64,000 bases of DNA from Candidatus Limnocylindrales bacterium (GTDB lineage Bacteria; Desulfobacterota; Binatia; UBA1149; CAITLU01), in the NCBI GenBank assembly GCA_035626395.1, contig DASPNR010000007.1:293012-357011 (forward strand), read 5' to 3'. Of the stretch, positions 1,088-49,655 are shown one piece after another. Position numbers and translations under genes: made by a program. Positions within the stretch are counted from its first letter, which is position 1. The number at the start of each line of letters is the position of its first letter. The notes beneath the pieces are model-generated. The model saw only the letters and a program-made list of their open reading frames with translations, was not told the DNA's origin and did not search any database.

Positions 1088-1314
1088 CCGCGGCGTCTGC
1101 GTGCGGCGACGCCTTTCCCAGCAGTCGCCCTGCAACGCTACGCGCAGTGGCGCTGGCCCGGTCAAACGACGGCGCTGCGGCGACACGGGCATCGCCGGCG
1201 GCCGCGAAGATTTCGCGACTCGACTGAGGAGATCTTGAGAGGCACGAGGTGCGCGTGCGGCGTCCGCAGCCGCAGACACCGCACGCGCGAGGATCGAGTG
1301 GACGTCAGCCGCTG

Positions 1315-1704
1315 CTAGCGGCGGTTTCCCTGACGGCCGCCGCCGATGGTGCCTTCTTCCTCTTCGAGATCGGCTTCCTCTTCATCGAGGCGCTCTTCGA
1401 GCTCTTCGTCATCCAGCGACCCCTGCTGCGTGGACTGCTGAGTCTGCTGGCGGCCCATTCCGCCCTGGCCTTCCTGCTGGTTCTGCTGGCGGCCCTGTCC
1501 CTGCTGGCCTTGCTGACGCTGTCCCTGCTGTCCGCCTTGCTGCTGCTGCTGCTGTCCCTGCTGCCCCTGCTGGCGCTGCTGACCTTGCTGACCCTGCTGG
1601 TTCTGCTGACCTTGCTGACCCTGCTGGTTCTGCTGACGCTGCTGGCCCTGATGGGTCTGCTGTCCTTGATCGCCCTGCTGCTTGTTCCTGTCGGTCATGG
1701 TCAA
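1315..1704 (-). CDS. Glutamine-rich low-complexity protein (QGQQ repeats) with an acidic Glu/Asp-rich C-terminal tail
   Basis: A strong RBS (AGGAG, 7 nt upstream of the ATG) is present. The reading frame runs through the CAG/CTG-rich repeat tract and has a clean stop. It is convergent with the GST gene. Confidence 0.6.
   Translation of the reverse strand: MTMTDRNKQQGDQGQQTHQGQQRQQNQQGQQGQQNQQGQQGQQRQQGQQGQQQQQQGGQQGQRQQGQQGQGRQQNQQEGQGGMGRQQTQQSTQQGSLDDEELEERLDEEEADLEEEEGTIGGGRQGNRR
1425..1690. repeat. Imperfect CTG/CAG-rich tandem-repeat tract (about 9-18 nt units) encoding the QGQQ repeats
   Basis: Repeated ctgctggcc/ttgctgacg/ctgtccctg units are visible directly in the sequence. Confidence 0.7.
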
Positions 1705-1949
1705 ACTCCTAGGGTTGGGGAGGCGAAAAGCCTCGGGTTCTCGCGTGCAGTGGCGATGCTACCGCCGTTCGGCCGTCGCATCGCGGGCTGCAAAACAGAA
1801 AGTGCGCGGCAGGGTCGAAATCGAGCGTCGCTGCCCGCAACGGGGAGCAAAGCGCCACCCGCGTGCGGGCAACTGCCCGCGCAACGCGCAGCGGCCAGCG
1901 CAACGCCTGCGTGTTCCGCGAACGCGGCAGGCTGGGGGAAACCGCCGCG

Positions 1950-3167
1950 TCACGCTTTCGCGCGACGCGCAGTGCGGCGGGCGGCGCGGCCGTGCGTCTT
2001 CGAGGCACGAGAAGCGGGCGACGTGCGAGACGTGGCGGACGCTCGCGTCGGACGAGGCGTGCGGCCGCGGCAGCGGCGCAGAAACCGCAGCGTTTCGAGC
2101 TCGTCGGGTGCCATCCCCGTACGCGGCCGCTTGACCGGCGCGATTGCCGGCACCTCGCCGTCGCCTTTGCCGTTGCCGGAGGCGGAGAGCTCTCCCGAAG
2201 CGAAGCGCTCCAGAACCAACGGGTGAATGTAGCACTTGCGGCAGACAGCGACGGTGTTGCCGAGCTTTTCGGCGACCTGCTCCACCGCACGCAGGACCAG
2301 CTTCTTCGCCGCGCGCTCGGTGCTGGCGCTCGGGCACTTGCGCAGCAGCGACATTGCCAGGACGGTGCCGGCCCAGGTGCGAAAGTCGCGCGCGGTGAAC
2401 TCGCCGCCGCTGATCTCTCGCAGATACTCGTTGACGTCGCCCGAATGGACGTCGTGGATGTTGCCGTCCTCGTCGTAATAGCCGAACAGGTCCTGACCCG
2501 GAATGTCCTGGCATTTGCGCACCACACGGGCCACGCGCGGATCCTCCACGGCGATGTCGTGGCGCTTGCCGCTCTTGCCGCGAAATTGGAACCGGATAGT
2601 CGAGGCCTTCACGGACGCGTGGCGGTTCTTCATCGTCGTCAGGCCATAGGAGTTGTTGGTGCGGGCATACTCCTCGTTGCCGATGCGGATGAACGTCAGG
2701 TCCATCAGGCGTATGACCGTGGCCAGCACGCGTTCCCGCTCCATTCCTCTGCCCGCGAGGTCGCGCGTGACGCGGCGGCGGATGGCCGGTAGCGCCTTGG
2801 CGAAATCCAGCATGCGGTCGTATTTGGTCGCGTCGCGCACCTGGCGCCAGCGTGGATGGTAGCGGTGCTGCTTGCGGCCGCGCGCGTCGCGGCCGGTGGC
2901 CTGGACGTGCCCGTTCTCGTCAGGGCAGATCCAGACGTCGGTCCATGCAGGTGGAATGGCGAGCGAGCGAATGCGCGCAAGGGTGCGGCCGTCGCGGACG
3001 GGCTTGCCGCTGCCGTTGACGTAGCGGAAGGTTTTGCCTGCCTTGACGCGGCGGATCCCCGGCCCATCGTCGCTGACGTAGCGAAGGCCCACTGCGCGCG
3101 CCGACTCGGGGGGCGGGGGAACGGCTCCCATGGTGTTGCCGCCATTGCGCATGCGATTCCGGAGCAC
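1950..3167 (-). CDS. DNA topoisomerase IB (bacterial poxvirus-like type IB topoisomerase)
   Basis: Motifs LRYVSDDGPGIRR, AIPPAWTDVWICP and HRYHPRWR are characteristic of bacterial TopIB. The true start is probably internal, at ATG 3152 or 3131. The long basic C-terminal tail is unverified. Confidence 0.75.
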   Translation of the reverse strand: MLRNRMRNGGNTMGAVPPPPESARAVGLRYVSDDGPGIRRVKAGKTFRYVNGSGKPVRDGRTLARIRSLAIPPAWTDVWICPDENGHVQATGRDARGRKQHRYHPRWRQVRDATKYDRMLDFAKALPAIRRRVTRDLAGRGMERERVLATVIRLMDLTFIRIGNEEYARTNNSYGLTTMKNRHASVKASTIRFQFRGKSGKRHDIAVEDPRVARVVRKCQDIPGQDLFGYYDEDGNIHDVHSGDVNEYLREISGGEFTARDFRTWAGTVLAMSLLRKCPSASTERAAKKLVLRAVEQVAEKLGNTVAVCRKCYIHPLVLERFASGELSASGNGKGDGEVPAIAPVKRPRTGMAPDELETLRFLRRCRGRTPRPTRASATSRTSPASRASKTHGRAARRTARRAKA

Positions 3168-11052: not shown

Positions 11053-11371
11053 GAGGTCTCCTTGCGCATTCGCGCCGAAGGGGCGCGTCGCGTCTGAAAC
11101 GGCGACTGCCTCCGGCGCCGGATTATTCGTAACGTCCCGTTTGCCGCGAACATTCGCGGGACGGGCTGCCTGACCCGTTCGAGGCGGGTTTCGCACGCAT
11201 CGAGTCTGGGGCGGCCTCTTTGGAGGGACGCCGCCGCATTGCGCGACCGCCTTCGGGTCAAACCGTCTTGCTGAGGTCGCCCTATGCGGCGTAGCCATGG
11301 AGAGAACAGTGATTCCTGACGACCTGCAGCGTTTCCGCGCTGCGCGTGCGCTGAACGAAGGAGAGACCCAG

Positions 11372-13936
11372 ATGCTGACGTTCCGAAGCGCCACGATGAG
11401 AGCCGCCGCGTTGGCGCTCGTCTGCCTGTTCCTTCCCCTGCCGGCCCAGGCACTGACCGACGCCGAGACCGAGTGCCGACTGGTCATCGCCAAGAGCATG
11501 GCCACATACACGCGGGCCGCGCTTCGCGTCACCAAGAAATGCCACCGCCGGCGCAGCGCCGGGCGTATCCCCCTCAGCATCGATTGCAGCGATCTGTCGC
11601 AGGCGGACACGCGCAACAAGCTGCCCGAGTACCGAACGCTCGTGCTCGACCGCATCGGCGGAGCAGGCAGCCCCTGCTCGCAGACGCCCGGGCTCCTGTC
11701 GCGCTACCCGAGTTGTCCCGCGCCTGCCCAGAGCGCCGATGACGGCGGCGCCTCGACGGGAATCGACTCCTTCACCGAGGTGGCGCAGTGCCTGATGGCG
11801 CTGACCGACGCCGAGGTCGGTGATTTGTCCGAGGAGACGGCCGGCGATCCGGCAAGCCCGCTCAGCGAAGCGGCGCTGCAGTGTCAGACGGCGATCTCCG
11901 AAGGCGTCAAGCGCATCGTCAAGCGCTACATGCACGAGCGGCGTCTTTGTCAGCGCAATCTCGACCAGGCGGGCGGCGGTCTCGACTACGGCTGCGAGGG
12001 CGCCGACCCGAACGGCCGCATCGCGCAGGCGCGCACCGCGGTCAGCAACTCCATCGCCACCCACTGTACGCTGTCGCAGGCCGAGCTGGCCACGCTCGAC
12101 TCGTGCGGCGATACCACGGCCGAGCTGCAGCAGTGCGTCGTCGCCGCCGCCGACGAAACCGGCGCCGATCTGATCGAGAACGCCTACGAGCTGCCCGGCG
12201 CAACGACGACGACCACGGAGGCGCCGCCGACCACGACGCTGGCGCCCACGACGACCACGACGATCTCCGGCCCGACGACCACGCTCGGCGCCACCACCAC
12301 GACGATCACCGGCCCCACCACCACCGTGGGACCGACGACGACGACGCTGACGGGCCCGACCACCACCGTCGGGCCGACCACGACGACCCTGACGGGCCCG
12401 ACCACCACGACGATGCCGGAGGCGCAATGCGCCGATACGTTCCCGCTGTGCAACGGCGCGTGCGGCGACGGCACGTTCTGCGGCGTCGACGGGACGGCGT
12501 GCGTCTGCGAGGCGGCCACCGGCGCCTGCGCGCCGGCAACGATCGAACGCGTCTTCCACGCGAAGTACGAGGGCAGCCAGACCAGCCTCAGCACCGGCTG
12601 GACCGGCACGGCGCACGACGTCGACATCCCCGGCGGCAGCCGCGACGTCGTCGACGTCGTCTGCGACCAGGAGTGCGAGAACTGCCAGGTCTCGCTCAAC
12701 GTGCAGGAAGGGCAGACCGTGTCGAACTGTCGCTGCGCTTCCTCGCCGCAGACCACCTGCACCGTCATCAACGGGCCCGATCCCGACAACTGCGGCGTCG
12801 TCGACTCCTCGTGCAACTGCTACTTCGGCTCCCCGCTGGCCATCTCCGCCGGCGGAACGCCGGTGTGCGTGACCAACGAGATCATCGAGGACTACAGCGG
12901 GACGATGAACCTGCGTACCGGCGAATGGTACGAGCGCACCAAGCTCGCCTCGGTGGTCCATCTCGGCGCCGACGTGTTCAATCCCTGCCCGCTGTGCGCA
13001 GGCGACGAAACGGCCAATGACGGCGTTCGCGGCGGCACCTGCGAGGGCGGCCTGCAGGACGGCATGAGCTGCGACGTCAACGGCGACCACCTCACGTTCG
13101 GACCGACCAGCTTCGACTGCCCGCCGCCGAGCCTCAGCAACATCAGCGGCAGCGGGCTGCTGCTCGACCTGAAGTTCTCGACGGGCCCGCAAGCGCTGGC
13201 GGCGAACCTCCCGTGCGATACGCCGGACGATGCGCTGTGCGCGTGCCGCGTCTGCTCGGGCAACAACAGGGTCGGCTGCGCCACCAACGCCGACTGCGAG
13301 GAATTCGACGCAGGAACCTGCACGGCCGGAGGTGGCGCGGGCGTCCAGCCCAACGAGTGCACGGATTTCGAATGCGGCGAGGACGATCGCTGCACGCAGG
13401 GCCCCATCGACAACTTCTGTGACGGCGTGACCCATCCCGACGGCCGCGGTTTCCTCAGCTGCGTGAGCGACCTGGACTGCCAGGCCCTGGGAGCGGGGCA
13501 GTGCACGGTCCAGGATCTGCGCCGCTGCTACAACTATCCGATCGAGACCACCGGCGACCCGGACATCGAGGAGCCGGTCAAGGCATCGATCTTCTGCATC
13601 CCGCCCACGACGAGCCCGGCCGTGAACTCCTCCGGCGGCCTGCCCGGCCCCGGTGTGTTCCGTCTGGACTTCGACGTGGACGTCCGATGCCAGAACGATC
13701 CGACCAAAGCCTACCAGTTCCCGAGCGGCGACAACTGCAACGAGTCCACGACCACGACGATCCAGGGCGGTACGACGCTGCCGCCGCTGACCACGACGCT
13801 GCCGGATGTGCCGACGACGCTGCCGGTGGCGGACTGCGCCCAGGCCACGCCGCCGCTGTGCGTGGGCGTCTGCGGGCCGGGAGAGGCGTGCGTGCAGGGC
13901 CTGTCGGGCTGTCAGTGCGGGGGGATCATGCCCTAA
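11372..13936 (+). CDS. Large secreted cysteine-rich protein with a poly-Thr linker; paralog A
   Basis: RBS GGAGAG precedes the ATG. The signal peptide is MLTFRSATMRAAALALVCLFLPLPAQA. A roughly 70-aa T/P/G linker is encoded by tandem repeats. More than 60 Cys residues follow, with motifs TGWTGTAHD, CNCYFG, NPCPLC, ANDGxRGG, FCIPPT and GLPGPG. Confidence 0.85.
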   Translation: MLTFRSATMRAAALALVCLFLPLPAQALTDAETECRLVIAKSMATYTRAALRVTKKCHRRRSAGRIPLSIDCSDLSQADTRNKLPEYRTLVLDRIGGAGSPCSQTPGLLSRYPSCPAPAQSADDGGASTGIDSFTEVAQCLMALTDAEVGDLSEETAGDPASPLSEAALQCQTAISEGVKRIVKRYMHERRLCQRNLDQAGGGLDYGCEGADPNGRIAQARTAVSNSIATHCTLSQAELATLDSCGDTTAELQQCVVAAADETGADLIENAYELPGATTTTTEAPPTTTLAPTTTTTISGPTTTLGATTTTITGPTTTVGPTTTTLTGPTTTVGPTTTTLTGPTTTTMPEAQCADTFPLCNGACGDGTFCGVDGTACVCEAATGACAPATIERVFHAKYEGSQTSLSTGWTGTAHDVDIPGGSRDVVDVVCDQECENCQVSLNVQEGQTVSNCRCASSPQTTCTVINGPDPDNCGVVDSSCNCYFGSPLAISAGGTPVCVTNEIIEDYSGTMNLRTGEWYERTKLASVVHLGADVFNPCPLCAGDETANDGVRGGTCEGGLQDGMSCDVNGDHLTFGPTSFDCPPPSLSNISGSGLLLDLKFSTGPQALAANLPCDTPDDALCACRVCSGNNRVGCATNADCEEFDAGTCTAGGGAGVQPNECTDFECGEDDRCTQGPIDNFCDGVTHPDGRGFLSCVSDLDCQALGAGQCTVQDLRRCYNYPIETTGDPDIEEPVKASIFCIPPTTSPAVNSSGGLPGPGVFRLDFDVDVRCQNDPTKAYQFPSGDNCNESTTTTIQGGTTLPPLTTTLPDVPTTLPVADCAQATPPLCVGVCGPGEACVQGLSGCQCGGIMP
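12205..12420. repeat. Tandem repeats of about 39 nt encoding the (GPTTTVGPTTTTLT)n linker of Cys-rich paralog A
   Basis: Repeating ggcccgaccaccaccgtgggaccgacgacgacgacgctgacg units are visible. Confidence 0.8.
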
Positions 13937-20013: not shown

Positions 20014-20622
20014 GTGTTCACGGGCATCATCGAGGACCTGGGCCGCCTGGCTGCTCGCCAGCCACTGGCGGCCGGCCAGAGGCTGCGCATCGCCACGCAC
20101 CTTTCCACATCCGATTTCCAGCTCGGCGAGAGCATCGCGCTGAGCGGCGCGTGCATGACGGTCGTGGAATGGTCGGCGGGCGAGTTCGCCGTCGACGTCT
20201 CGGCCGAGTCGCTGCGCCGCACCACGCTCGGCGCGCTGGCAGAAGGCGAACCCATCAACATCGAACGGTCGATGAAGCTCGGTGACCGTCTCGGCGGTCA
20301 CATCGTCTCCGGTCACGTCGACGGCACCGGAACGGTCGTGGCGATCCGAGAAGAAGGCGAGTCGGCGATCTTCACGTTCGCCATCGACGAAGGGCTCATG
20401 CCGATGCTCGTCGAGAAGGGGTCGGTCGCCGTCGACGGAATAAGCCTGACCTGCTTCCATTGCGGCACGGACCGTTTCGACGTGGCTGTCATTCCTCACA
20501 CGCGCCAGGTCACCACGCTCGGCGCGCGCCGCGTCGGCGACCGCGTGAACATCGAGACCGACGTTCTCGGCAAGTACGTGGCGCGTCTGGTCGAGGCGTC
20601 GGTGCGGGCGCACACGCGTTGA
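20014..20622 (+). CDS. ribE: Riboflavin synthase alpha subunit
   Basis: MFTGIIE... shows the duplicated lumazine-binding fold. The start codon is GTG. Confidence 0.9.
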   Translation: MFTGIIEDLGRLAARQPLAAGQRLRIATHLSTSDFQLGESIALSGACMTVVEWSAGEFAVDVSAESLRRTTLGALAEGEPINIERSMKLGDRLGGHIVSGHVDGTGTVVAIREEGESAIFTFAIDEGLMPMLVEKGSVAVDGISLTCFHCGTDRFDVAVIPHTRQVTTLGARRVGDRVNIETDVLGKYVARLVEASVRAHTR

Positions 20623-20757
20623 CCCGCCATCGGGCCCTCCCGCCTGCGTGATTTTCTCGCGCCGTCGAATGGCGCGAGAAAAGCCCGCGTCGTCTCTCGT
20701 AGCGCAAGGCGACCTGCTCGTGCAGGGAACCCCCGCTTTGTGCCGGAGGATGCGCCG

Positions 20758-21381
20758 ATGAGAGTGACGCATTGGTTGGGCGCCGTTGCCGGCGCTTTCG
20801 CGATGTCGACCGCAGCCGAGGCCCACGTGCCGGCTGCCCATGCTTCCTGCGCCGGCGCCGGCGGCGACGCGGCGCAGATGCTCGCCCAGACCGCTTCCCC
20901 GCAACCTTCCACGATCGCACCAGGCCAGCTCGGCACTTCGCCGCACGTCCCCGGCCATTTCCCGGGCGCGGGCGGCAGTCCGGGCCGAGCCACCGGCGGC
21001 CCCGGCACCGGCGCCACCGGCGACGGCGGCGTCGCCGGCACCGCGGCATCCGGTGAGCGCGGAGCAACGGGCACTGGCGCAGCAACGAACACGGACGCCG
21101 GCGTCGGTACCGACGCCGGCCCGGGCATGGAGACCGGCGCAGGCGCGGCGCCCGCGTCGGAGGTCGAGGAAGGAAGCCGTCTCGATACCGAGGCCTTCCG
21201 CCCTCGCATCGGCAGCGATGCCGAGCGCGCCGGCACCGGCGGCGCGGGCGGCGCGGGCGTCGAGGCGGATGTGAACAGGCGCGTGTTCGCGCCGAGCGGC
21301 ACCGGCGTCAGCGGCGAGGCTGGAACCGCCGCGCCCGGCGGCGCGGGAACCGCAGCGGGCGGCGCCGCCGCCGGCCGCTGA
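20758..21381 (+). CDS. Secreted Gly/Ala/Thr-rich low-complexity protein
   Basis: GGAGGA RBS precedes the ATG. The signal peptide is MRVTHWLGAVAGAFAMSTAAEA. GC3 is high. Confidence 0.6.
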   Translation: MRVTHWLGAVAGAFAMSTAAEAHVPAAHASCAGAGGDAAQMLAQTASPQPSTIAPGQLGTSPHVPGHFPGAGGSPGRATGGPGTGATGDGGVAGTAASGERGATGTGAATNTDAGVGTDAGPGMETGAGAAPASEVEEGSRLDTEAFRPRIGSDAERAGTGGAGGAGVEADVNRRVFAPSGTGVSGEAGTAAPGGAGTAAGGAAAGR

Positions 21382-21429
21382 TGATCGACTCACGGCGAGG
21401 GAACTCGCCACAACCAGGAGGTAGCAGTC

Positions 21430-21894
21430 ATGAGCAGGATCTCTTTTCGCACGGTCGCCGTCACCGCAGGTCTGATCGTTGCAGCGGGCACCGTGTACGC
21501 CGACGCTCCCAGGCTCGACGATGGCGCGACCGGAGCGCAGCTGGCGCAGACCGGCAGCGGGTCAGGCAAGGCCGGCTCGGCGGCCGGAAGGATGGGAGCG
21601 GGTACGAACACCGACTCGGGAACCAACACCGACAGTGGGACCAACGCCGACGCCGCGCCGGGCGCCGCGGGCAGCGCGCCCGGCCGCTTGGGAACCACGC
21701 CAGGTCAGGCGGGCACGGCGCCTGGAATGGGCGGCACGGCTCCCGGCACGGCCGGCACCGTTCCGCCGGCCGGATCGGGCGCGGGCAGCACTGGCAGCGG
21801 TACCGGCACTGGTACCGGCACGGGCACCGGTACCGGTAGCGGCACTGGCAGCGGCACTGGCAGCGGCACCGGCACTGGCAGCGGCGGTCGCTGA
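21430..21894 (+). CDS. Secreted Gly/Thr/Ser-rich low-complexity protein ending in a (GTGS)n repeat
   Basis: AGGAGG RBS precedes the ATG. The signal peptide is MSRISFRTVAVTAGLIVAAGTVYA. The 3' end is encoded by tandem GGCACYGGY repeats. Confidence 0.65.
   Translation: MSRISFRTVAVTAGLIVAAGTVYADAPRLDDGATGAQLAQTGSGSGKAGSAAGRMGAGTNTDSGTNTDSGTNADAAPGAAGSAPGRLGTTPGQAGTAPGMGGTAPGTAGTVPPAGSGAGSTGSGTGTGTGTGTGTGSGTGSGTGSGTGTGSGGR
21789..21888. repeat. (GGCACYGGY)n microsatellite-like repeat encoding (GTGS)n
   Basis: The unit ggcactggcagcggcactggcagc... is visible directly. Confidence 0.8.
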
Positions 21895-21992
21895 GGATCA
21901 ACGGCCTCGCGTCGACCGCGGCGGCCCTGACGCACGCTGGCGCGTCGCGACGGCCGCATGAAAGCCGGCGCGAACGACGCGCCAAACGACGA

Positions 21993-22028
21993 GGGCGGCG
22001 GCAGTTCATGCCGCCGCCCTTGTCTATC
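21993..22028. terminator. Rho-independent terminator with an 11-bp GC stem (gggcggcggca-gttca-tgccgccgccc) followed by a T-rich run
   Basis: It lies downstream of the G/T-rich gene on + and directly after the ABC1-kinase stop on -. Confidence 0.6.
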
Positions 22029-23367
22029 TGGTCGGCCTCAGCGGCGAGAACGACATGCCGAGGAACGGCATCATCGCCGCCAGCGGATCGACCTTGGAGT
22101 CGAGCGTCTTTCCGATTCCCGACAGCAGCCCCATCACGCGCAGCACGAGCAGAAGATCGGAGGAGGCGCGCACGATCGGATTGGCGCGCAGCGCGCGCAT
22201 CAGCTCGTCGTTGATGCGCTCGACCATCGCCAGGTCGGCGTAGGCCCGTCCCGCACGCAGCGCCTGCCCCAGGAACAGCTCACCGATGGTGACGAAGGTG
22301 TCGTCGCTGCCCGTGCGCGTGCGAAAGCCGAGTTGCCGGAACGCTTCGCCGACGGCGGCTGCATCCTGCGCGATGATCGCGGTGGTCAGGCGGATCAGCC
22401 CGTCGCGCAGCGCCGGCGTGAATTCCTTGGCGAGCCCCAGATCCAGGATCACCAGCACCGGGCCCGCCGTGCCTCGCTGCACCAGCAGATTGCCGGGATG
22501 CGGATCGCCGTGGAAGAAGCCGTGCACGAGGATCTGCCGGATGTACGTGCGCGCCAGCAGCTCGGCGACATGGTGCTTGTCGACGCCGATTCGTTCGAGA
22601 CCGGCAAGGTCGGTGATCTTGACGCCCTCGATATAGTTCATCGTCAGCACCGTGCGCGTGCACAGGGCGGCCACGGGCGTGGGAAACACGACCTGGGGGT
22701 CGTCCGCGAAGTCGGCGCCGAAGCGGCGGGCGTTGGCCGCCTCGTTGACGAAATCGAGCTCGAGCGGAATGTACTTGTAGAGCTCGTCCAGCAGGATGCG
22801 AAAGTCGAACGTCCTTTCGATCCGGGCCAGCAGCCGGATGAAGAACGCGAAGTTGGCGAGATCGGTGGCAATGACGCGCTCGATCCGCGGATACTGGATC
22901 TTGATCGCGACGTCGCTGCCGTCGTGCAGCTTTCCGCGATGCACCTGCGCCAGGGATGCCGATGCCAGCGGCGTCGGCTCGATGTGCGCGTAGCACTGCT
23001 CCAGCGGCCGCCCGAGCTGGGCCTCCAGCCAGGGTCGGATCTCCTCGAACGGCCGCGGCGGCACCCTGTCCTGCAGCTGCGCCAGGATGTCGATGAACTG
23101 GGGCGGAAGAATGTCGGCGCGGCTGCCGGCGAACTGGCACGCCTTGATCAGCAGGCCTTCGAGCCCAAGCGCCGTATCGCGCGCCATCTCCGCCGAGCGC
23201 GTATGCCAGGCATCATAGTAGTCGGGGCGGCTGGATGCGCCGGTGATGGCGCCCCAGGCCTGACGGGCCTTGTATCCGACATAGATGGTTACGACCATGC
23301 GCGCGACGGCGGTGAAGCGCCGCACGCGCGTCGGGAACGGAAGGGAAGGGGAGTCGGTGGGCGACAT
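22024..23367 (-). CDS. ABC1/UbiB-family atypical kinase (AarF domain)
   Basis: Diagnostic UbiB/ABC1 motifs are present (AIKIQYP, HGDPHPGN, DLG). Confidence 0.85.
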   Translation of the reverse strand: MSPTDSPSLPFPTRVRRFTAVARMVVTIYVGYKARQAWGAITGASSRPDYYDAWHTRSAEMARDTALGLEGLLIKACQFAGSRADILPPQFIDILAQLQDRVPPRPFEEIRPWLEAQLGRPLEQCYAHIEPTPLASASLAQVHRGKLHDGSDVAIKIQYPRIERVIATDLANFAFFIRLLARIERTFDFRILLDELYKYIPLELDFVNEAANARRFGADFADDPQVVFPTPVAALCTRTVLTMNYIEGVKITDLAGLERIGVDKHHVAELLARTYIRQILVHGFFHGDPHPGNLLVQRGTAGPVLVILDLGLAKEFTPALRDGLIRLTTAIIAQDAAAVGEAFRQLGFRTRTGSDDTFVTIGELFLGQALRAGRAYADLAMVERINDELMRALRANPIVRASSDLLLVLRVMGLLSGIGKTLDSKVDPLAAMMPFLGMSFSPLRPTR

Positions 23368-46001: not shown

Positions 46002-46457
46002 ATGAGCAGTCGTGGAAGTCTGGTGGTGTTCGCGACGACGATGGCTCTCGGAATCGCCGTCGCCGGTTGCGCGTCGGGGCCGATGACGCGGCGTGAGGAA
46101 GGGCTGGCGGCAGGCGCCATCGTCGGCGCCGGCTCCGGAGCGGTGATCGGGGCCGCCGCGGGCGATCCGGCGGCGGGCGCCATCATCGGCGGCGCTCTGG
46201 GCGCGATCACGGGCGCTGCCATTGGCGACGCGCAGCAGGCACGGGAGCAGGAAGCGTACTATCTCGAGCAGCGCGCTCGGGAGCAGGAATACGAGCTGGC
46301 CCGGCAGCGCGCGGAGATCGAGCGTCTGCGTCGCGAGCGCGGAGAGCCCGGGTATCGCGACCCCTACGAGCCTCCCTACAGCCAGCCGCACGGCTACTAC
46401 TCGGAGCGCTACTACGAGAGCCGTCACAACGACGACGGCGACTATTACGAGTACTGA
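46002..46457 (+). CDS. Lipoprotein with a glycine-zipper segment, a coiled coil and a Tyr-rich tail
   Basis: GGAGGAGGAG RBS precedes the ATG. The lipobox is AVAGC. The Gly-zipper is AGAIVGAGSGAVIGAAAGD... Confidence 0.7.
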   Translation: MSSRGSLVVFATTMALGIAVAGCASGPMTRREEGLAAGAIVGAGSGAVIGAAAGDPAAGAIIGGALGAITGAAIGDAQQAREQEAYYLEQRAREQEYELARQRAEIERLRRERGEPGYRDPYEPPYSQPHGYYSERYYESRHNDDGDYYEY

Positions 46458-47561: not shown

Positions 47562-49655
47562 ATGTCTTGGAAGTTGGCCTCACGCCTGTCGCTGTCCTTT
47601 GCTGCATCCCTGTTCGCGCTGGTGCTGTCGCTGCCGGCGGCGTCCGAAGCCGCTCAGGGCGACTGCAGCCAGCCCGTCACGTCCGGTCAGAACCCCACCG
47701 CCAGTGACTGCCTGTACATCCTCAAGAGCGCAGTCGGCACCGAAGAGTGCGAGATCTGCGTGTGCGACACGACGGGCAACGAGGAGATCCAGGCCACCGA
47801 CTCTCTGCTTTGCCTCAAGTACGCGGTCGGACAGCCGGTCGAGCTGAATTGCCCCGAGTGCGATACCACGACCACCAGCACGTCGAGCACGAGCACGTCG
47901 AGCACCAGCACGTCGACCACCACCACGACGCTGGGAGGTCCGACCACCACGATCGACACACCCACGACGACGATCGATACGCCCACGACCACCATCGACA
48001 CGCCGACGACGACGCTGAGCAACACGACCACCACGGTCGATACGCCCACGACGACGATCGATACGCCGACGACGACGCTGGTTGCCGCGGGGGCCTGCCC
48101 CGGCTTCGGCGAGCTGACGCTGTACTCGGGCTTCGGCGAGCTGTGCAGCAACAACGCCGATTGTCCGGTCGGCACCTGCAACAACGAGCGCGGCCGCTGC
48201 CAGACGGTGACCGAGCTCGACAGCGGATGGACGGGCCTGGCGCACGACTCCGACATCAACAACGAGACGCTCAGCCGCGGCTTCCTGGACTGTCCGGGAA
48301 CCGGCGGCGCCTGCGGTGTCTGCTCGGTCGAAGGCCTGGATCCCTCCATCGGCAACTGCCGGTGCGCCAACAACAACCAGGCGGTGTGCGACGAGAAATT
48401 CGCGGCCGATGCGGACGACTGCGGCGGCCAGGTCTGCAACTGCTACTTCGGCGCGCCCTTCCCGCTCTCCTCGGGCGGCACGCCGGCCTGCATCGTCAAC
48501 CGCTTCTTCGAGGACATCTCGGGAACGGCCAATCCCGATACGGGCTCCGGCGCGATTTCGGCGAACCTGCGTACGCAGGTCTTCCTCGGCATCACCACGA
48601 GCAATCCGTGTCCGGTCTGCGGCGGCGTCTGCTCCAACGACGACACGCAGACGTGCATCTTCGATGCCGACTGCGGCGACGGCAACACCTGTCAGGATGA
48701 CCCGACCGCCAACGACGGCAACCGCGGCGGCGTCTGCGTGGACGGCCGCAACATCGGAACGGCCTGCGACGTGAACGCCTACAACACCTCGTTCCCGGCC
48801 ATTCCCAACGCGCCGGGCGGCGCCGGCTACAGCATCGACTGCTTCCCCGATACCGGCAAGAACGTGTCGGGCGCGGGCCTGGTCATCCAGCTGACGCAGA
48901 CGACCGGGACCCAGCAGCTCGACTTCGACGTGCCGTGCGGCAACGGCGACCTGCTCTGCGCCTGCCGGCAGTGCACGACCGATGCAACGGTGCCGTGCGA
49001 CGATGATGCGGACTGCGCGTCGCAGTCGGGCGCGTGCAGCGTCTCCAACAAGTTCCTGTGCACGTCGAACAACGACTGCTCGAGCGTCAATGCCGGCACG
49101 TGCCTGACGATCAAGCGCTGCAGCCAGGCGACGTCTCTGACCTGCAACACCAACACCGACTGCCTCAATCGCAACGTGGGCCAGTGCAATCCGTCCACCT
49201 GCAGCGCGAACGGCACCGGCGGCTTCCCGTCGCCGAACCAGTGCCAGGGCGGGCTGTGCGAGGACGCCGGCGACGAGGAAGGCTTGTGCACCGAGGGCCC
49301 GGACGAGAGCAGCTGCGATGCGGTGGTGAAGGCCAACGGCGACGGCATCCTGTCGTGCTCGGTCAACGCCGATTGCGAGCCAGCATCGGTCGGTGTCGAC
49401 GCCGGCAACTGCACGCTGGTCAAGCGCCGCGAATGCTTCCTCGACCCGATCGTGGCCACCGGACAGGCCAGCCCGACCATGCCGGTGGGAGCGTCCGTGT
49501 TCTGCATCCCGCCCACGAGCAACCAGCCCATCAACACGGTGGCGGGTCTGCCGGGGCCGGGACGCGTGACCAATCAGGCGATCTCGCGGACGTTCTGCGA
49601 GAACGCGCCGGAGACGCAGTACACGCCGGGCGTGGGCGGCTGCCCCGCAGAATAG
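47562..49655 (+). CDS. Large secreted cysteine-rich protein with a poly-Thr linker; paralog B
   Basis: AAGGAGGA RBS precedes the ATG. A signal peptide is present. The N-terminus carries a duplicated dockerin-like segment (DCLYILKSAVG / DSLLCLKYAVG), followed by (TPTTTID)n and a Cys-rich body sharing motifs with paralog A. Confidence 0.85.
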   Translation: MSWKLASRLSLSFAASLFALVLSLPAASEAAQGDCSQPVTSGQNPTASDCLYILKSAVGTEECEICVCDTTGNEEIQATDSLLCLKYAVGQPVELNCPECDTTTTSTSSTSTSSTSTSTTTTTLGGPTTTIDTPTTTIDTPTTTIDTPTTTLSNTTTTVDTPTTTIDTPTTTLVAAGACPGFGELTLYSGFGELCSNNADCPVGTCNNERGRCQTVTELDSGWTGLAHDSDINNETLSRGFLDCPGTGGACGVCSVEGLDPSIGNCRCANNNQAVCDEKFAADADDCGGQVCNCYFGAPFPLSSGGTPACIVNRFFEDISGTANPDTGSGAISANLRTQVFLGITTSNPCPVCGGVCSNDDTQTCIFDADCGDGNTCQDDPTANDGNRGGVCVDGRNIGTACDVNAYNTSFPAIPNAPGGAGYSIDCFPDTGKNVSGAGLVIQLTQTTGTQQLDFDVPCGNGDLLCACRQCTTDATVPCDDDADCASQSGACSVSNKFLCTSNNDCSSVNAGTCLTIKRCSQATSLTCNTNTDCLNRNVGQCNPSTCSANGTGGFPSPNQCQGGLCEDAGDEEGLCTEGPDESSCDAVVKANGDGILSCSVNADCEPASVGVDAGNCTLVKRRECFLDPIVATGQASPTMPVGASVFCIPPTSNQPINTVAGLPGPGRVTNQAISRTFCENAPETQYTPGVGGCPAE
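47867..48080. repeat. 24-nt tandem repeats encoding the (TPTTTIDT)n linker of Cys-rich paralog B, preceded by a (ST)n tract
   Basis: gatacgcccacgacgacgatc units are repeated. Confidence 0.8.

Follow-up and report, generated by a model that had tools for sequence, protein, structure and literature searches.

Between ribE and ubiB in a Binatia genome lie two tandem open reading frames of such biased composition that the first question is whether they are genes at all and, if so, what kind of protein they encode. The most probable reading, at a probability of about 0.6, is that ORF1 and ORF2 are real, lineage-restricted genes for disordered, exported Gly/Ala/Thr/Ser/Pro chains, with ORF2 a likely young paralog of ORF1. 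The window (the whole stretch of 64,000 nucleotides that was analyzed) contains the following features at this locus.

20646..20688, plus strand: hairpin just past the ribE stop codon (inverted repeat I5), UUUUCUCGCGCC-GUCGAAU-GGCGCGAGAAAA
20745..20750, plus strand: Shine–Dalgarno sequence GGAGGA of ORF1, read from the sequence, 7 nt 5' of the ATG
20758..21381, plus strand: ORF1, 207 aa, ATG at 20758 and stop codon at 21379-21381
20893..20973, plus strand: ORF1 island 1, a candidate short linear motif at residues 46-72, ASPQPSTIAPGQLGTSPHVPGHFPGAG
21157..21216, plus strand: ORF1 island 2, a candidate short linear motif at residues 134-153, SEVEEGSRLDTEAFRPRIGS
21416..21421, plus strand: Shine–Dalgarno sequence AGGAGG of ORF2, read from the sequence, 8 nt 5' of the ATG
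21430..21894, plus strand: ORF2, 154 aa, ATG at 21430 and stop codon at 21892-21894
21599..21651, plus strand: 18-nt repeat in 2.9 copies found by TRF (repeat family D7), inside ORF2 and encoding (GTNTDS)n
21785..21885, plus strand: ORF2 tail repeat, a degenerate 12-nt repeat with a 6-nt sub-period that encodes the C-terminal (GT/GS)n
21988..22024, plus strand: intrinsic-terminator hairpin with a 16-bp stem (inverted repeat I9), between the convergent ORF2 and ubiB

A preliminary description had read the locus as two tandem plus-strand genes for exported low-complexity proteins, and the exact coordinates, the Shine–Dalgarno sequences and the signal peptides all bear this out. Signal peptides were called by a rule-based scan that required a basic n-region, then ~10-15 uncharged hydrophobic residues as the h-region, and cleavage at a small-x-small motif. 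The signal peptide of ORF1 covers residues 1-22 (20758-20823; MRVTHWLGAVAGAFAMSTAAEA, followed by HV), with R2, the h-region WLGAVAGAFAMSTAA and cleavage between AEA and H. That of ORF2 covers residues 1-24 (21430-21501; MSRISFRTVAVTAGLIVAAGTVYA, followed by DA), with R3 and R7, the h-region TVAVTAGLIVAAGTV and cleavage between VYA and D. Start codons with at least 100 codons downstream number 1852 in the window, and only nine of them combine a Shine–Dalgarno 5-mer or longer with a signal-peptide-like N-terminus, the ORF1 site counting as a 5-mer and the ORF2 site as a 6-mer. The remaining seven of the nine all show the codon-position GC pattern typical of real genes; the pairing is thus not a chance product of GC-rich sequence.

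A relative whose flanking genes are 80-86% identical (L086) carries one ortholog of ORF1, at 1602-2288(-), in the same frame and at the same ribE–ubiB site. Its signal peptide, with K2/R4 and the h-region IAVMAAALAMAGAAAAGA, also has the rule-based features of a Sec and signal peptidase I substrate, as do those of ORF1 and ORF2, and GGAGG stands 6 nt before its ATG. The two proteins align with z = 12 against composition-preserving shuffles, and the differences between the genes fall on the three codon positions as 65/66/104. With a dN/dS of 0.42-0.44, the ORF1 frame is the lowest of the six, four others lying at 1.2-1.5, and compared with ribE (0.25) and ubiB (0.17) the value of 0.44 indicates relaxed constraint. 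Synonymous sites have diverged to saturation (dS ~1.1), and over this distance ORF1 has kept its start codon and RBS, its signal peptide and reading frame, both motifs and the terminal GR. Judged by these comparisons, ORF1 is a real gene. Its synonymous-codon score of 0.47 was also counted in favor of a real gene, since it exceeds the minimum of 0.34 among confident genes (0.65 +/- 0.11).

At 76% GC several frames usually hold long ORFs, and at this locus they include a Pro/Ala-rich ORF at 20496..21302 and a Cys/Arg-rich one at 21461..22009 on the minus strand, together with 20786..21274 on the plus strand. That one of these is the real gene and the Gly/Ala/Thr proteins its shadows is very improbable. 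In its favor, the third codon positions of the minus ORF at 20496..21302 fall on those of ORF1; with wobble positions in common, third-position statistics allow for it, and because its dN/dS is 0.56, selection by itself hardly distinguishes this shadow frame from ORF1. Other evidence does: the frame is broken in L086 by two stop codons (positions 1996 and 2143), has neither a Shine–Dalgarno sequence nor a signal peptide, overlaps 127 nt of ribE at its 3' end as well as the intergenic hairpin, and has a codon score of 0.22-0.30 compared with 0.47 for ORF1. The remaining frames have dN/dS above 1.2, and the alternative products are Arg-, Cys- or Pro-rich, as in off-frame translation. The preliminary description had named expression of this minus frame as the observation that would speak against its two genes, and the frame instead has the marks of a shadow.

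ORF2 presents a more difficult case. Its synonymous-codon score of 0.26 is lower than in any confident gene, with some overlapping frames scoring at least as well, the rare codons GGT and ACT are abundant in it, notably in the tail repeat, and no ortholog is found in L086. A less favored explanation, unlikely on balance, is that the ORFs, and ORF2 especially, are young translatable products of GC-rich simple-repeat expansion in a variable spacer, with little or no selected function. The atypical codons of ORF2 and its presence in this genome alone fit such an origin, as do the short tandem duplications that make up both ORFs, the relaxed dN/dS of ORF1 and a ribE–ubiB spacer of 17 bp to 3.3 kb, depending on the relative. 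Disorder-prone products are also what high-GC orphan ORFs should give; eukaryotic orphan and de novo proteins of high-GC genes are short, taxonomically restricted and predicted to be disordered (PMC5389847), and ORF1 and ORF2 resemble them in each respect and in having a composition near the GC-rich expectation. What speaks against such an origin is the set of features that ORF1 has kept at dS ~1.1, and the strong Shine–Dalgarno sequence and canonical signal peptide on both ORFs, which are rare by chance. That study concerns eukaryotic orphans; here ORF1 is under purifying selection and both ORFs carry full export signals, and in this they exceed random ORFs.

The distribution of these genes is narrow. 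Three more distant Binatia (L006, L091 and L094) have no such gene, with ribE–ubiB gaps of 17-150 bp, and a filter for a signal peptide, at least 60% G/A/T/S and low Arg over ~1 Mb of related loci was passed by ORF1, ORF2 and the L086 relative only. Protein homology searches with ORF1, ORF2 and a two-sequence alignment of the islands gave no matches, among them an exhaustive phmmer search with ORF1 against 1.84 billion representatives (0 matches). Pfam, NCBIfam, plasmids (tblastn) and viral contigs yielded nothing for either ORF, and the PDB nothing for ORF1; the PDB matches of ORF2 are weak and only to engineered flexible linkers, through the tail. An exact look-up found ORF1, ORF2 and the L086 protein themselves missing from the collection of 1.84 billion representatives, where no self-match was possible, and for proteins missing from large collections negative homology searches are weak evidence.

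The products are as unusual in composition as first described, with a Gly/Ala/Thr/Ser content put at about 60% and the absence of a hydrophobic core both holding up. Mature ORF1 (~16.6 kDa, acidic with a pI of 4.9, and G/A/T/P-rich) is 25% Gly, 22% Ala, 10% Thr and 6% Ser, a sum of 63%, with hydrophobic residues and Cys at 11%. Mature ORF2 (~11 kDa) is 32% Gly, 18.5% Thr, 15% Ala and 10% Ser, a sum of 76%, with 5% hydrophobic residues and no aromatics. AlphaFold2 predicts the signal-peptide helix alone in both proteins (pLDDT 46), and GRAVY is -0.25 to -0.5. Both mature chains are predicted to be intrinsically disordered and exported. Lipoproteins, whose h-region ends in a lipobox [LVI][ASTVI][GAS]C, were considered and rejected: the HASC of ORF1 lies nine residues past AEA, has His at -3 and is not kept in L086, and the mature ORF2 chain has no Cys.

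High Gly content and predicted export also raise the prospect of a known class, be it collagen-like triple helices, proteins associated with the S-layer, protectants of the hydrophilin/LEA type or class II microcins rich in Gly, and the Ser/Gly-rich tail is superficially like that of class IIb microcins. Membership in any of them is highly doubtful. The collagen-like and S-layer homologs that the preliminary description had looked toward did not emerge: there is no Pfam match to collagen (PF01391), G-X-Y periodicity is absent, with (Gxx)n runs of at most three triplets in ORF1 and two in ORF2, where Gly has a period of 2, and S-layer or SLH domains are missing from the Pfam and NCBIfam results, with no folded domain predicted. 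Hydrophilins have more than 6% Gly and a mean hydrophilicity index above 1; the Gly content of 25-32% passes, and the GRAVY values fall short on hydrophilicity. Class II microcins and other bacteriocins of this kind are contradicted by Sec-type signal peptides in place of a double-glycine leader and by the lack of an ABC exporter/peptidase or immunity gene nearby. The sequence VPGxFPGAG prompted a comparison with elastin-like VPGXG proteins, which was also rejected, 2P+G being 0.40-0.45 when the threshold for elastomeric proteins is roughly 0.6.

Within ORF1, the comparison with L086 separates conserved islands from gapped, variable filler. Both islands align gap-free, with identity at 18/27 residues in island 1 and 12/20 in island 2. 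Counting residues other than Gly, Ala, Thr and Ser, identity is 50% in both islands and 13% in the remaining mature protein (Fisher p = 0.001, for islands defined post hoc after inspection of the alignment). The Logan assembly is interrupted at 21153-21182, within ORF1. The two sequences, which are the only members, would make up a provisional new family, recognizable by a signal peptide, LAQ[TA]-SPQPS...VPG[HK]FPGAG, a variable G/A/T filler, SEVExGSxLDxxAF, a G-rich tail, a terminal GR and a gene position between ribE and ubiB, all found in ORF1 and in L086 1602-2288(-). Plus-strand peptides predicted for the locus include LDTEAFRPR and MGAGTNTDSGTNTDSGTNADAAPGAAGSAPGR.

The layout of ORF2 mirrors that of ORF1, with a signal peptide, xLAQT, NTD(S/A)G repeats, PGxLGTxP, a Gly-rich tail and a terminal GR. 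By alignment the similarity is marginal, at z = 2.8, a score that 11/1000 shuffles also reach, and the L086 protein compared with ORF2 gives z = 1.4. ORF2 probably arose as a recent tandem copy of ORF1 that has since diverged. Of the family features it keeps only LAQT, PGxLGTxP, the terminal GR and the repeats NTD(S/A)G, and its place in the family is tentative. The TNTDAG and GTDAG motifs of ORF1 resemble the (GTNTDS)n repeat of ORF2, and both ORFs are pieced together from short tandem duplications, five tandem-repeat arrays lying within 1.1 kb of the locus. A single split gene was rejected as an explanation for the pair: ORF1 matches the L086 protein end to end, terminal GR included, and ORF2 comes with an RBS and a signal peptide of its own.

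The tail of ORF2 had been described as a (GTGS)n tail and as a plausible contingency locus. A repeat-encoded tail is indeed present (TRF, 21788-21885, period 6 x 16.3 copies, 71% matches), and in register it consists of ~8 degenerate 12-nt units (family D1, 12-nt spacing, 72-83% identity) that encode STGSGTGTGTGTGTGTGSGTGSGTGSGTGTGSGGR. Strict GTGS occurs in three consecutive units only, so (GT/GS)n is the better description. The longest perfect tract is 32 nt, or 2.7 x 12 nt, and 13 nt at period 6; this tract and the rare codons shared among units suggest, as far as sequence can tell, recent unit duplication.

It is improbable that the repeat marks a hypervariable surface or contingency locus, in which fast mutation of (GT/GS)n would supply adaptive length variants, for example in antigenic or phage-receptor variation. 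The repeat-encoded tail and the signs of recent duplication favor this, and in Drosophila the degenerate ACN-GGN Thr-Gly cassettes of per are length-polymorphic and fast-mutating (PMC4109182). Phase-variable loci of this type have long perfect tracts of a short unit, positioned so that a change in copy number alters the reading frame or the promoter spacing. The tract is degenerate, however, with perfect copies numbering only 2.7, and it lies in frame at the 3' end of the gene, in the last 35 codons. With a unit that is a multiple of three in this position, frameshift switching is impossible, and slippage only lengthens or shortens the tail and never switches the gene. The repeat is thus at most a means of adjusting tail length and not an on/off switch. 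No length variants appear among the seven contigs with the locus, all of which carry an identical 154-aa ORF2 with the flanking ubiB, in assemblies that are 100% identical over > 10 kb and hence not independent. The protein also has no anchor and no folded surface domain.

Several known systems offer partial parallels to exported disordered genes of the kind favored here. In the ClfA/Sdr proteins, Gram-positive surface proteins with a Ser-Asp repeat stalk, the hydroxyl residues are glycosylated (PMC3794999). Stalk and ORF2 tail are alike as long dipeptide repeats in which every other residue is small or bears a hydroxyl group, with degenerate codons and an unstructured exported segment. Sdr proteins differ in their folded ligand-binding domains, LPXTG wall anchor and repeats of hundreds of residues, while ORF2 has no folded domain or anchor, a diderm host and a repeat of ~32 residues built of Gly-Thr/Gly-Ser in place of Ser-Asp. 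Drosophila PERIOD, whose Thr-Gly repeat has documented length polymorphism (PMC4109182), shares with the ORF2 tail an ACN-GGN cassette repeat encoding (Thr-Gly)n, degeneracy at the DNA level and multi-codon cassette slippage, but it is a eukaryotic intracellular clock protein with the repeat internal to a large folded protein. Engineered (Gly-Ser)/(Gly-Thr) linkers are close in composition and expected random-coil behavior; they join domains artificially, whereas the "linker" of ORF2 ends freely at the C-terminus, in a protein predicted to be disordered throughout.

The architecture proposed for ORF1 is also that of the translocation domains of colicins, which are unstructured, with short conserved binding motifs set in Gly-rich filler. 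Colicins have folded receptor-binding and cytotoxic domains in addition and are not Sec substrates. Asr of E. coli, a disordered periplasmic protein, is basic, with abundant Lys, His and Ala. Like ORF1 as predicted here, both are disordered chains of the bacterial envelope, the colicins having the motif-in-filler arrangement as well; no sequence similarity was found.

The flanks add two RNA structures. The hairpin at 20646..20688, whose core GCGxCGTCGAATGG and GCGTCGTCTCT are kept in L086, may be a 3' structure of ribE or a leader element of ORF1. The terminator that the preliminary description placed after the genes was located at 21988-22024 (dG -40.5 kcal/mol, z = -7.75), followed by UUGUCUAUCU, a T-rich tail on the plus strand; the hairpin core and TTT tail are kept 3' of the single ORF of L086. 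A simple terminator scan did not pick up this hairpin. A promoter scan, uninformative for Binatia, found no sigma-70-like promoter, and Rfam gave only a sub-threshold chance match over 20550-22100 (ar35, 18.9 bits against a gathering score of 45). Insertion of a mobile element was rejected, flanking direct or inverted repeats not exceeding chance. The neighbors (ribE, ubiB, ccmABCD, clpB, a PGPGW protein and a Zn-ribbon protein) give no functional hint for ORF1 and ORF2.

A history consistent with these findings can be proposed. The two genes would be read rightward out of the ribE–ubiB spacer and end at their common hairpin terminator, and each precursor would be processed through Sec and signal peptidase I. 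The exported chains (~16.6 and 11 kDa, pI ~4.8) would be mildly acidic, fold-free Gly/Ala/Thr/Ser/Pro polymers. ORF1 would be the older gene, retained in a related species, with filler that changes fast by in-frame indels and short tandem duplications while the motifs ASPQPS...VPG[HK]FPGAG and SEVExGSxLDxxAF...GS are preserved, presumably as docking sites for an envelope partner. ORF2, the likely young tandem copy, would have extended its (GT/GS)n tail by slippage of the 12-nt unit. As the preliminary description reasonably suggested in naming flexible linker or matrix proteins, the mature chains may serve in the periplasm or at the cell surface as spacers or matrix material, flexible and hydrated and perhaps O-glycosylated at Thr/Ser; any location past the inner membrane, binding to a partner and a role in physiology all belong to this inference. 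A bolder version, speculative and rather unlikely, is the birth and growth of genes in an intergenic hot spot where simple repeats expand. ORF1 would have arisen in one Binatia sub-lineage and been duplicated, ORF2 would still be undergoing remodelling by 12-18-nt slippage, and the two would found a new family of envelope polymers that leave by Sec, resemble mucins or hydrogels, contain docking motifs and may be O-glycosylated.

The importance of the finding is modest, and the contingency-locus reading, which went unsupported, would have been more interesting. ORF1 is a worked example of how a true low-complexity gene can be told apart from high-GC shadow frames, and the pair indicates that gene callers are probably right to retain such odd ORFs in an uncultured phylum. 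The locus documents a taxonomically restricted, fast-evolving pair of predicted exported disordered proteins that look like ordinary fast-evolving orphans in a very narrow lineage. If they prove abundant in the Binatia envelope or matrix, they would represent a new kind of bacterial extracellular polymer.

The ribE–ubiB interval carries two tandem open reading frames encoding Gly/Ala/Thr-rich proteins with signal peptides. The genes lie in the order clpB (-), PGPGW protein, Zn-ribbon protein, ribE, ORF1, and ORF2 (all +), then ubiB/ABC1 kinase and ccmDCBA (all -), and the features of the preliminary description were all found where it had placed them.

20014–20622, ribE, riboflavin synthase, flanking ORF1
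20758–21381 (+), ORF1, 207 aa; Shine–Dalgarno GGAGGA 7 nt upstream; signal-peptide cleavage between AEA and H; mature product 63% G/A/T/S, 11% hydrophobic/Cys residues, pI 4.9
21430–21894 (+), ORF2, 154 aa; Shine–Dalgarno AGGAGG 8 nt upstream; cleavage between VYA and D; mature product 76% G/A/T/S, 5% hydrophobic/Cys residues, pI 4.8
21788–21885, (GT/GS)n repeat in the ORF2 tail (TRF period 6, 16 copies, 71% matches)
21988–22024, hairpin 3' of ORF2, 16-bp stem with a U-rich tail

The last hairpin bears out the terminator claimed to follow the genes; it is highly stable (dG -40.5 kcal/mol, z = -7.75) and is kept in L086, a related metagenome contig (Ga0196978_1004068). The claimed tail repeat is likewise real and makes most sense as roughly eight degenerate units of 12 nt encoding (GT/GS)n. 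Five tandem-repeat arrays fall inside the 1.1 kb of ORF1 and ORF2, which points to growth by slippage.

The window has a GC content of 68.5%, and the identical sequence occurs in a 553-kb metagenome contig (JGI 3300021061, Ga0196973_1000002) and in ENA and Logan assemblies. The best matches of ribE in a genome collection are MAGs labelled Candidatus Binatia, the closest just 64% identical, so the host, judged by this gene, is an uncultured Binatia-like bacterium without a close reference genome. In the Logan assembly of SRR7003766, ORF1 is split at 21153–21182 between two contigs (the ends of L003 and L005) that overlap by 30 nt; the sequence there is nonrepetitive and encodes the conserved SEVEEGSRL motif, and the break may reflect strain-level polymorphism or a coverage drop.

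The region is 76% GC with most frames open, and therefore the reality of the genes and their frame needed a real test. Among 1852 window start codons with at least 100 codons downstream, nine combine a Shine–Dalgarno match of at least 5 nt at the right spacing with a signal-peptide-like N terminus; apart from ORF1 and ORF2, the remaining seven show the GC1/GC2/GC3 signature of genuine genes. L086 has the same gene order as the window (ubiB 86%, ribE 80%, and Zn-ribbon protein 87% identical), and its ribE–ubiB interval holds one ORF of 228 aa, which has a GGAGG and a signal peptide of its own. The alignment of this ORF with ORF1 runs from the start through the terminal Gly-Arg with 49% identity and scores 12 SD above composition-preserving shuffles. 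Differences by codon position 1/2/3 number 65/66/104, and dN/dS is 0.42–0.44 in the ORF1 frame and 1.2–1.5 in four other frames.

Expression of a Pro/Ala-rich minus-strand ORF (20496..21302) had been named as what would refute plus-strand coding. That frame has its wobble positions in common with ORF1 and gives a dN/dS of 0.56, and the selection statistics by themselves would barely separate the two. The minus-strand alternative fails on other evidence: it has two stop codons in L086, in the window extends across the intergenic hairpin and 127 nt of ribE, and is without a Shine–Dalgarno sequence or signal peptide. The synonymous-codon score of ORF1 (0.47) falls within the range of 32 confident genes (0.65 ± 0.11, minimum 0.34) and is higher than that of all overlapping frames. 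The Shine–Dalgarno sequence and signal peptide, the same-frame L086 ortholog, the substitution pattern, and codon usage argue with high confidence that ORF1 is a real gene.

ORF2 is less secure as a gene. Its Shine–Dalgarno sequence is the better of the two and its signal peptide is textbook; no ortholog was found, L086 having one gene only at the site, and it has a codon score of 0.26, the rare codons GGT and ACT being numerous. It resembles ORF1 only marginally (tblastn within the window, E = 0.001; shuffle test z = 2.8, with 11 of 1000 shuffles scoring as high). The two have short features in the same order (signal peptide, xLAQT, NTD(S/A)G repeats, PGxLGTxP, Gly-rich tail, terminal GR), which suggests that ORF2 is a diverged tandem duplicate of ORF1.

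The proposal that the ORF2 tail is a contingency locus is not supported. The repeat is degenerate, its longest perfect tract being 32 nt (2.7 copies of 12 nt), and because the unit length is divisible by three and the tract makes up the last 35 codons, slippage would only add or remove GT/GS pairs and could not cause phase variation. An identical 154-aa ORF2 occurs in seven of seven contigs with this ubiB, which reveals little of population variation because the assemblies are 100% identical over >10 kb. Drosophila per has degenerate ACN-GGN cassettes for Thr-Gly that show length polymorphism (PMC4109182), so by analogy the tail may vary in length.

Three more distant Binatia-like contigs (L006, L091, and L094) have ribE and ubiB directly convergent, with a gap of 17–150 bp. 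Two other related loci carry unrelated inserts in this spacer: in L092 a 66-aa ORF, tautomerase-like by inspection of sequence, and in L093 an insert of 3.3 kb that contains a duplicate of the ubiB 3' end. The junction thus appears to be a variable spot in Binatia-like genomes and the ORF1 family restricted, by this comparison, to a narrow sub-lineage. A mobile-element origin of ORF1 and ORF2 was rejected for want of evidence; no flanking repeats beyond chance point to one.

Directly 3' of the ribE stop lies another hairpin (20646–20688) with a 12-bp perfect stem (UUUUCUCGCGCC/GGCGCGAGAAAA) and a counterpart at about 2380–2420 in L086, where its core GCGxCGTCGAATGG and the following GCGTCGTCTCT are kept. 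No Rfam match was found for it; it may serve ribE as a terminator or ORF1 as a leader element. The L086 ortholog is preceded (L086 2290–2360) by two tandem copies of a roughly 35-nt motif (GTGCGCACGGCGATGGCC[T/C]GCCAC...) that is missing from the window.

Neither ORF1 nor ORF2 matches anything in Pfam, NCBIfam, plasmids, or viral contigs; ORF1 has no PDB match, and those of ORF2 are engineered GS/GT linkers of fusion constructs only (E ≥ 0.03). Large protein collections also returned nothing, a weak negative because exact look-up found ORF1, ORF2, and the L086 protein themselves absent there. The contig index has all three as called genes, yet they are missing from the 15-billion-protein collection; it may systematically lack such low-complexity proteins, which would make "no homolog" results unreliable for them. 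Membership among hydrophilins and microcins was tested and failed, as it did for collagen-like and S-layer proteins. The earlier interpretation holds for secreted low-complexity proteins and finds no support for the contingency locus or for the collagen and S-layer links, which the domain searches also leave without a match.

AlphaFold2, weak evidence when run on a single sequence, predicts the signal-peptide helix alone in both proteins (mean pLDDT 46). The main rival explanation, a young proto-gene with little function, ORF2 in particular, would agree with the disordered look expected of high-GC orphans (PMC5389847). Most likely, the products would be flexible, hydrated chains exported by Sec to the periplasm or cell surface. 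Between ORF1 and its L086 ortholog, 60 gapped columns, all in frame, fall in G/A/T filler and leave two ungapped islands, residues 46–72 (ASPQPS..GQ[LI]G.S..VPG[HK]FPGAG) and 134–153 (SEVExGSxLDxxAF...GS). Identity at non-G/A/T/S residues is 50% in the islands, which were defined post hoc, versus 13% elsewhere (p = 0.001). These may be two short docking motifs inside variable filler, an architecture known in disordered envelope proteins such as colicin translocation domains.

Exported low-complexity Thr/Ser-rich segments are often O-glycosylated. Staphylococcal SD repeats are a reported example (PMC3794999), and by analogy O-glycosylation of the ORF1 and ORF2 products is a lead. Elsewhere in the window, two large secreted Cys-rich paralogs (11297–13936 (+), 879 aa; 47562–49655 (+), 697 aa; BLASTP E = 4e-59, 34% identity), with no Pfam domain, both carry a mucin-like Thr/Pro tandem repeat (TTTITGPTTTVGP at 12220–12412; TTTIDTPTTT at 47869–48077). 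Other repeats are a CTGCTG-type 9/18/27-nt array at 1435–1680, which would encode a Leu-rich (LLTLL)n stretch in a putative ORF (1249..2226 (+)), and a 63-nt tandem duplication (46106–46228) within a small lipoprotein-like ORF (46002–46457 (+)) with a lipobox-like VAGC and glycine-zipper domains (PF13488, E = 4e-7). The Cys-rich pair may be of greater interest than ORF1 and ORF2, and hints that the organism makes Thr-rich, possibly O-glycosylated, exported proteins. The ORF1 and ORF2 products themselves, previously unclassified and lineage-restricted, belong to a familiar type, that of exported repeat proteins with intrinsic disorder.
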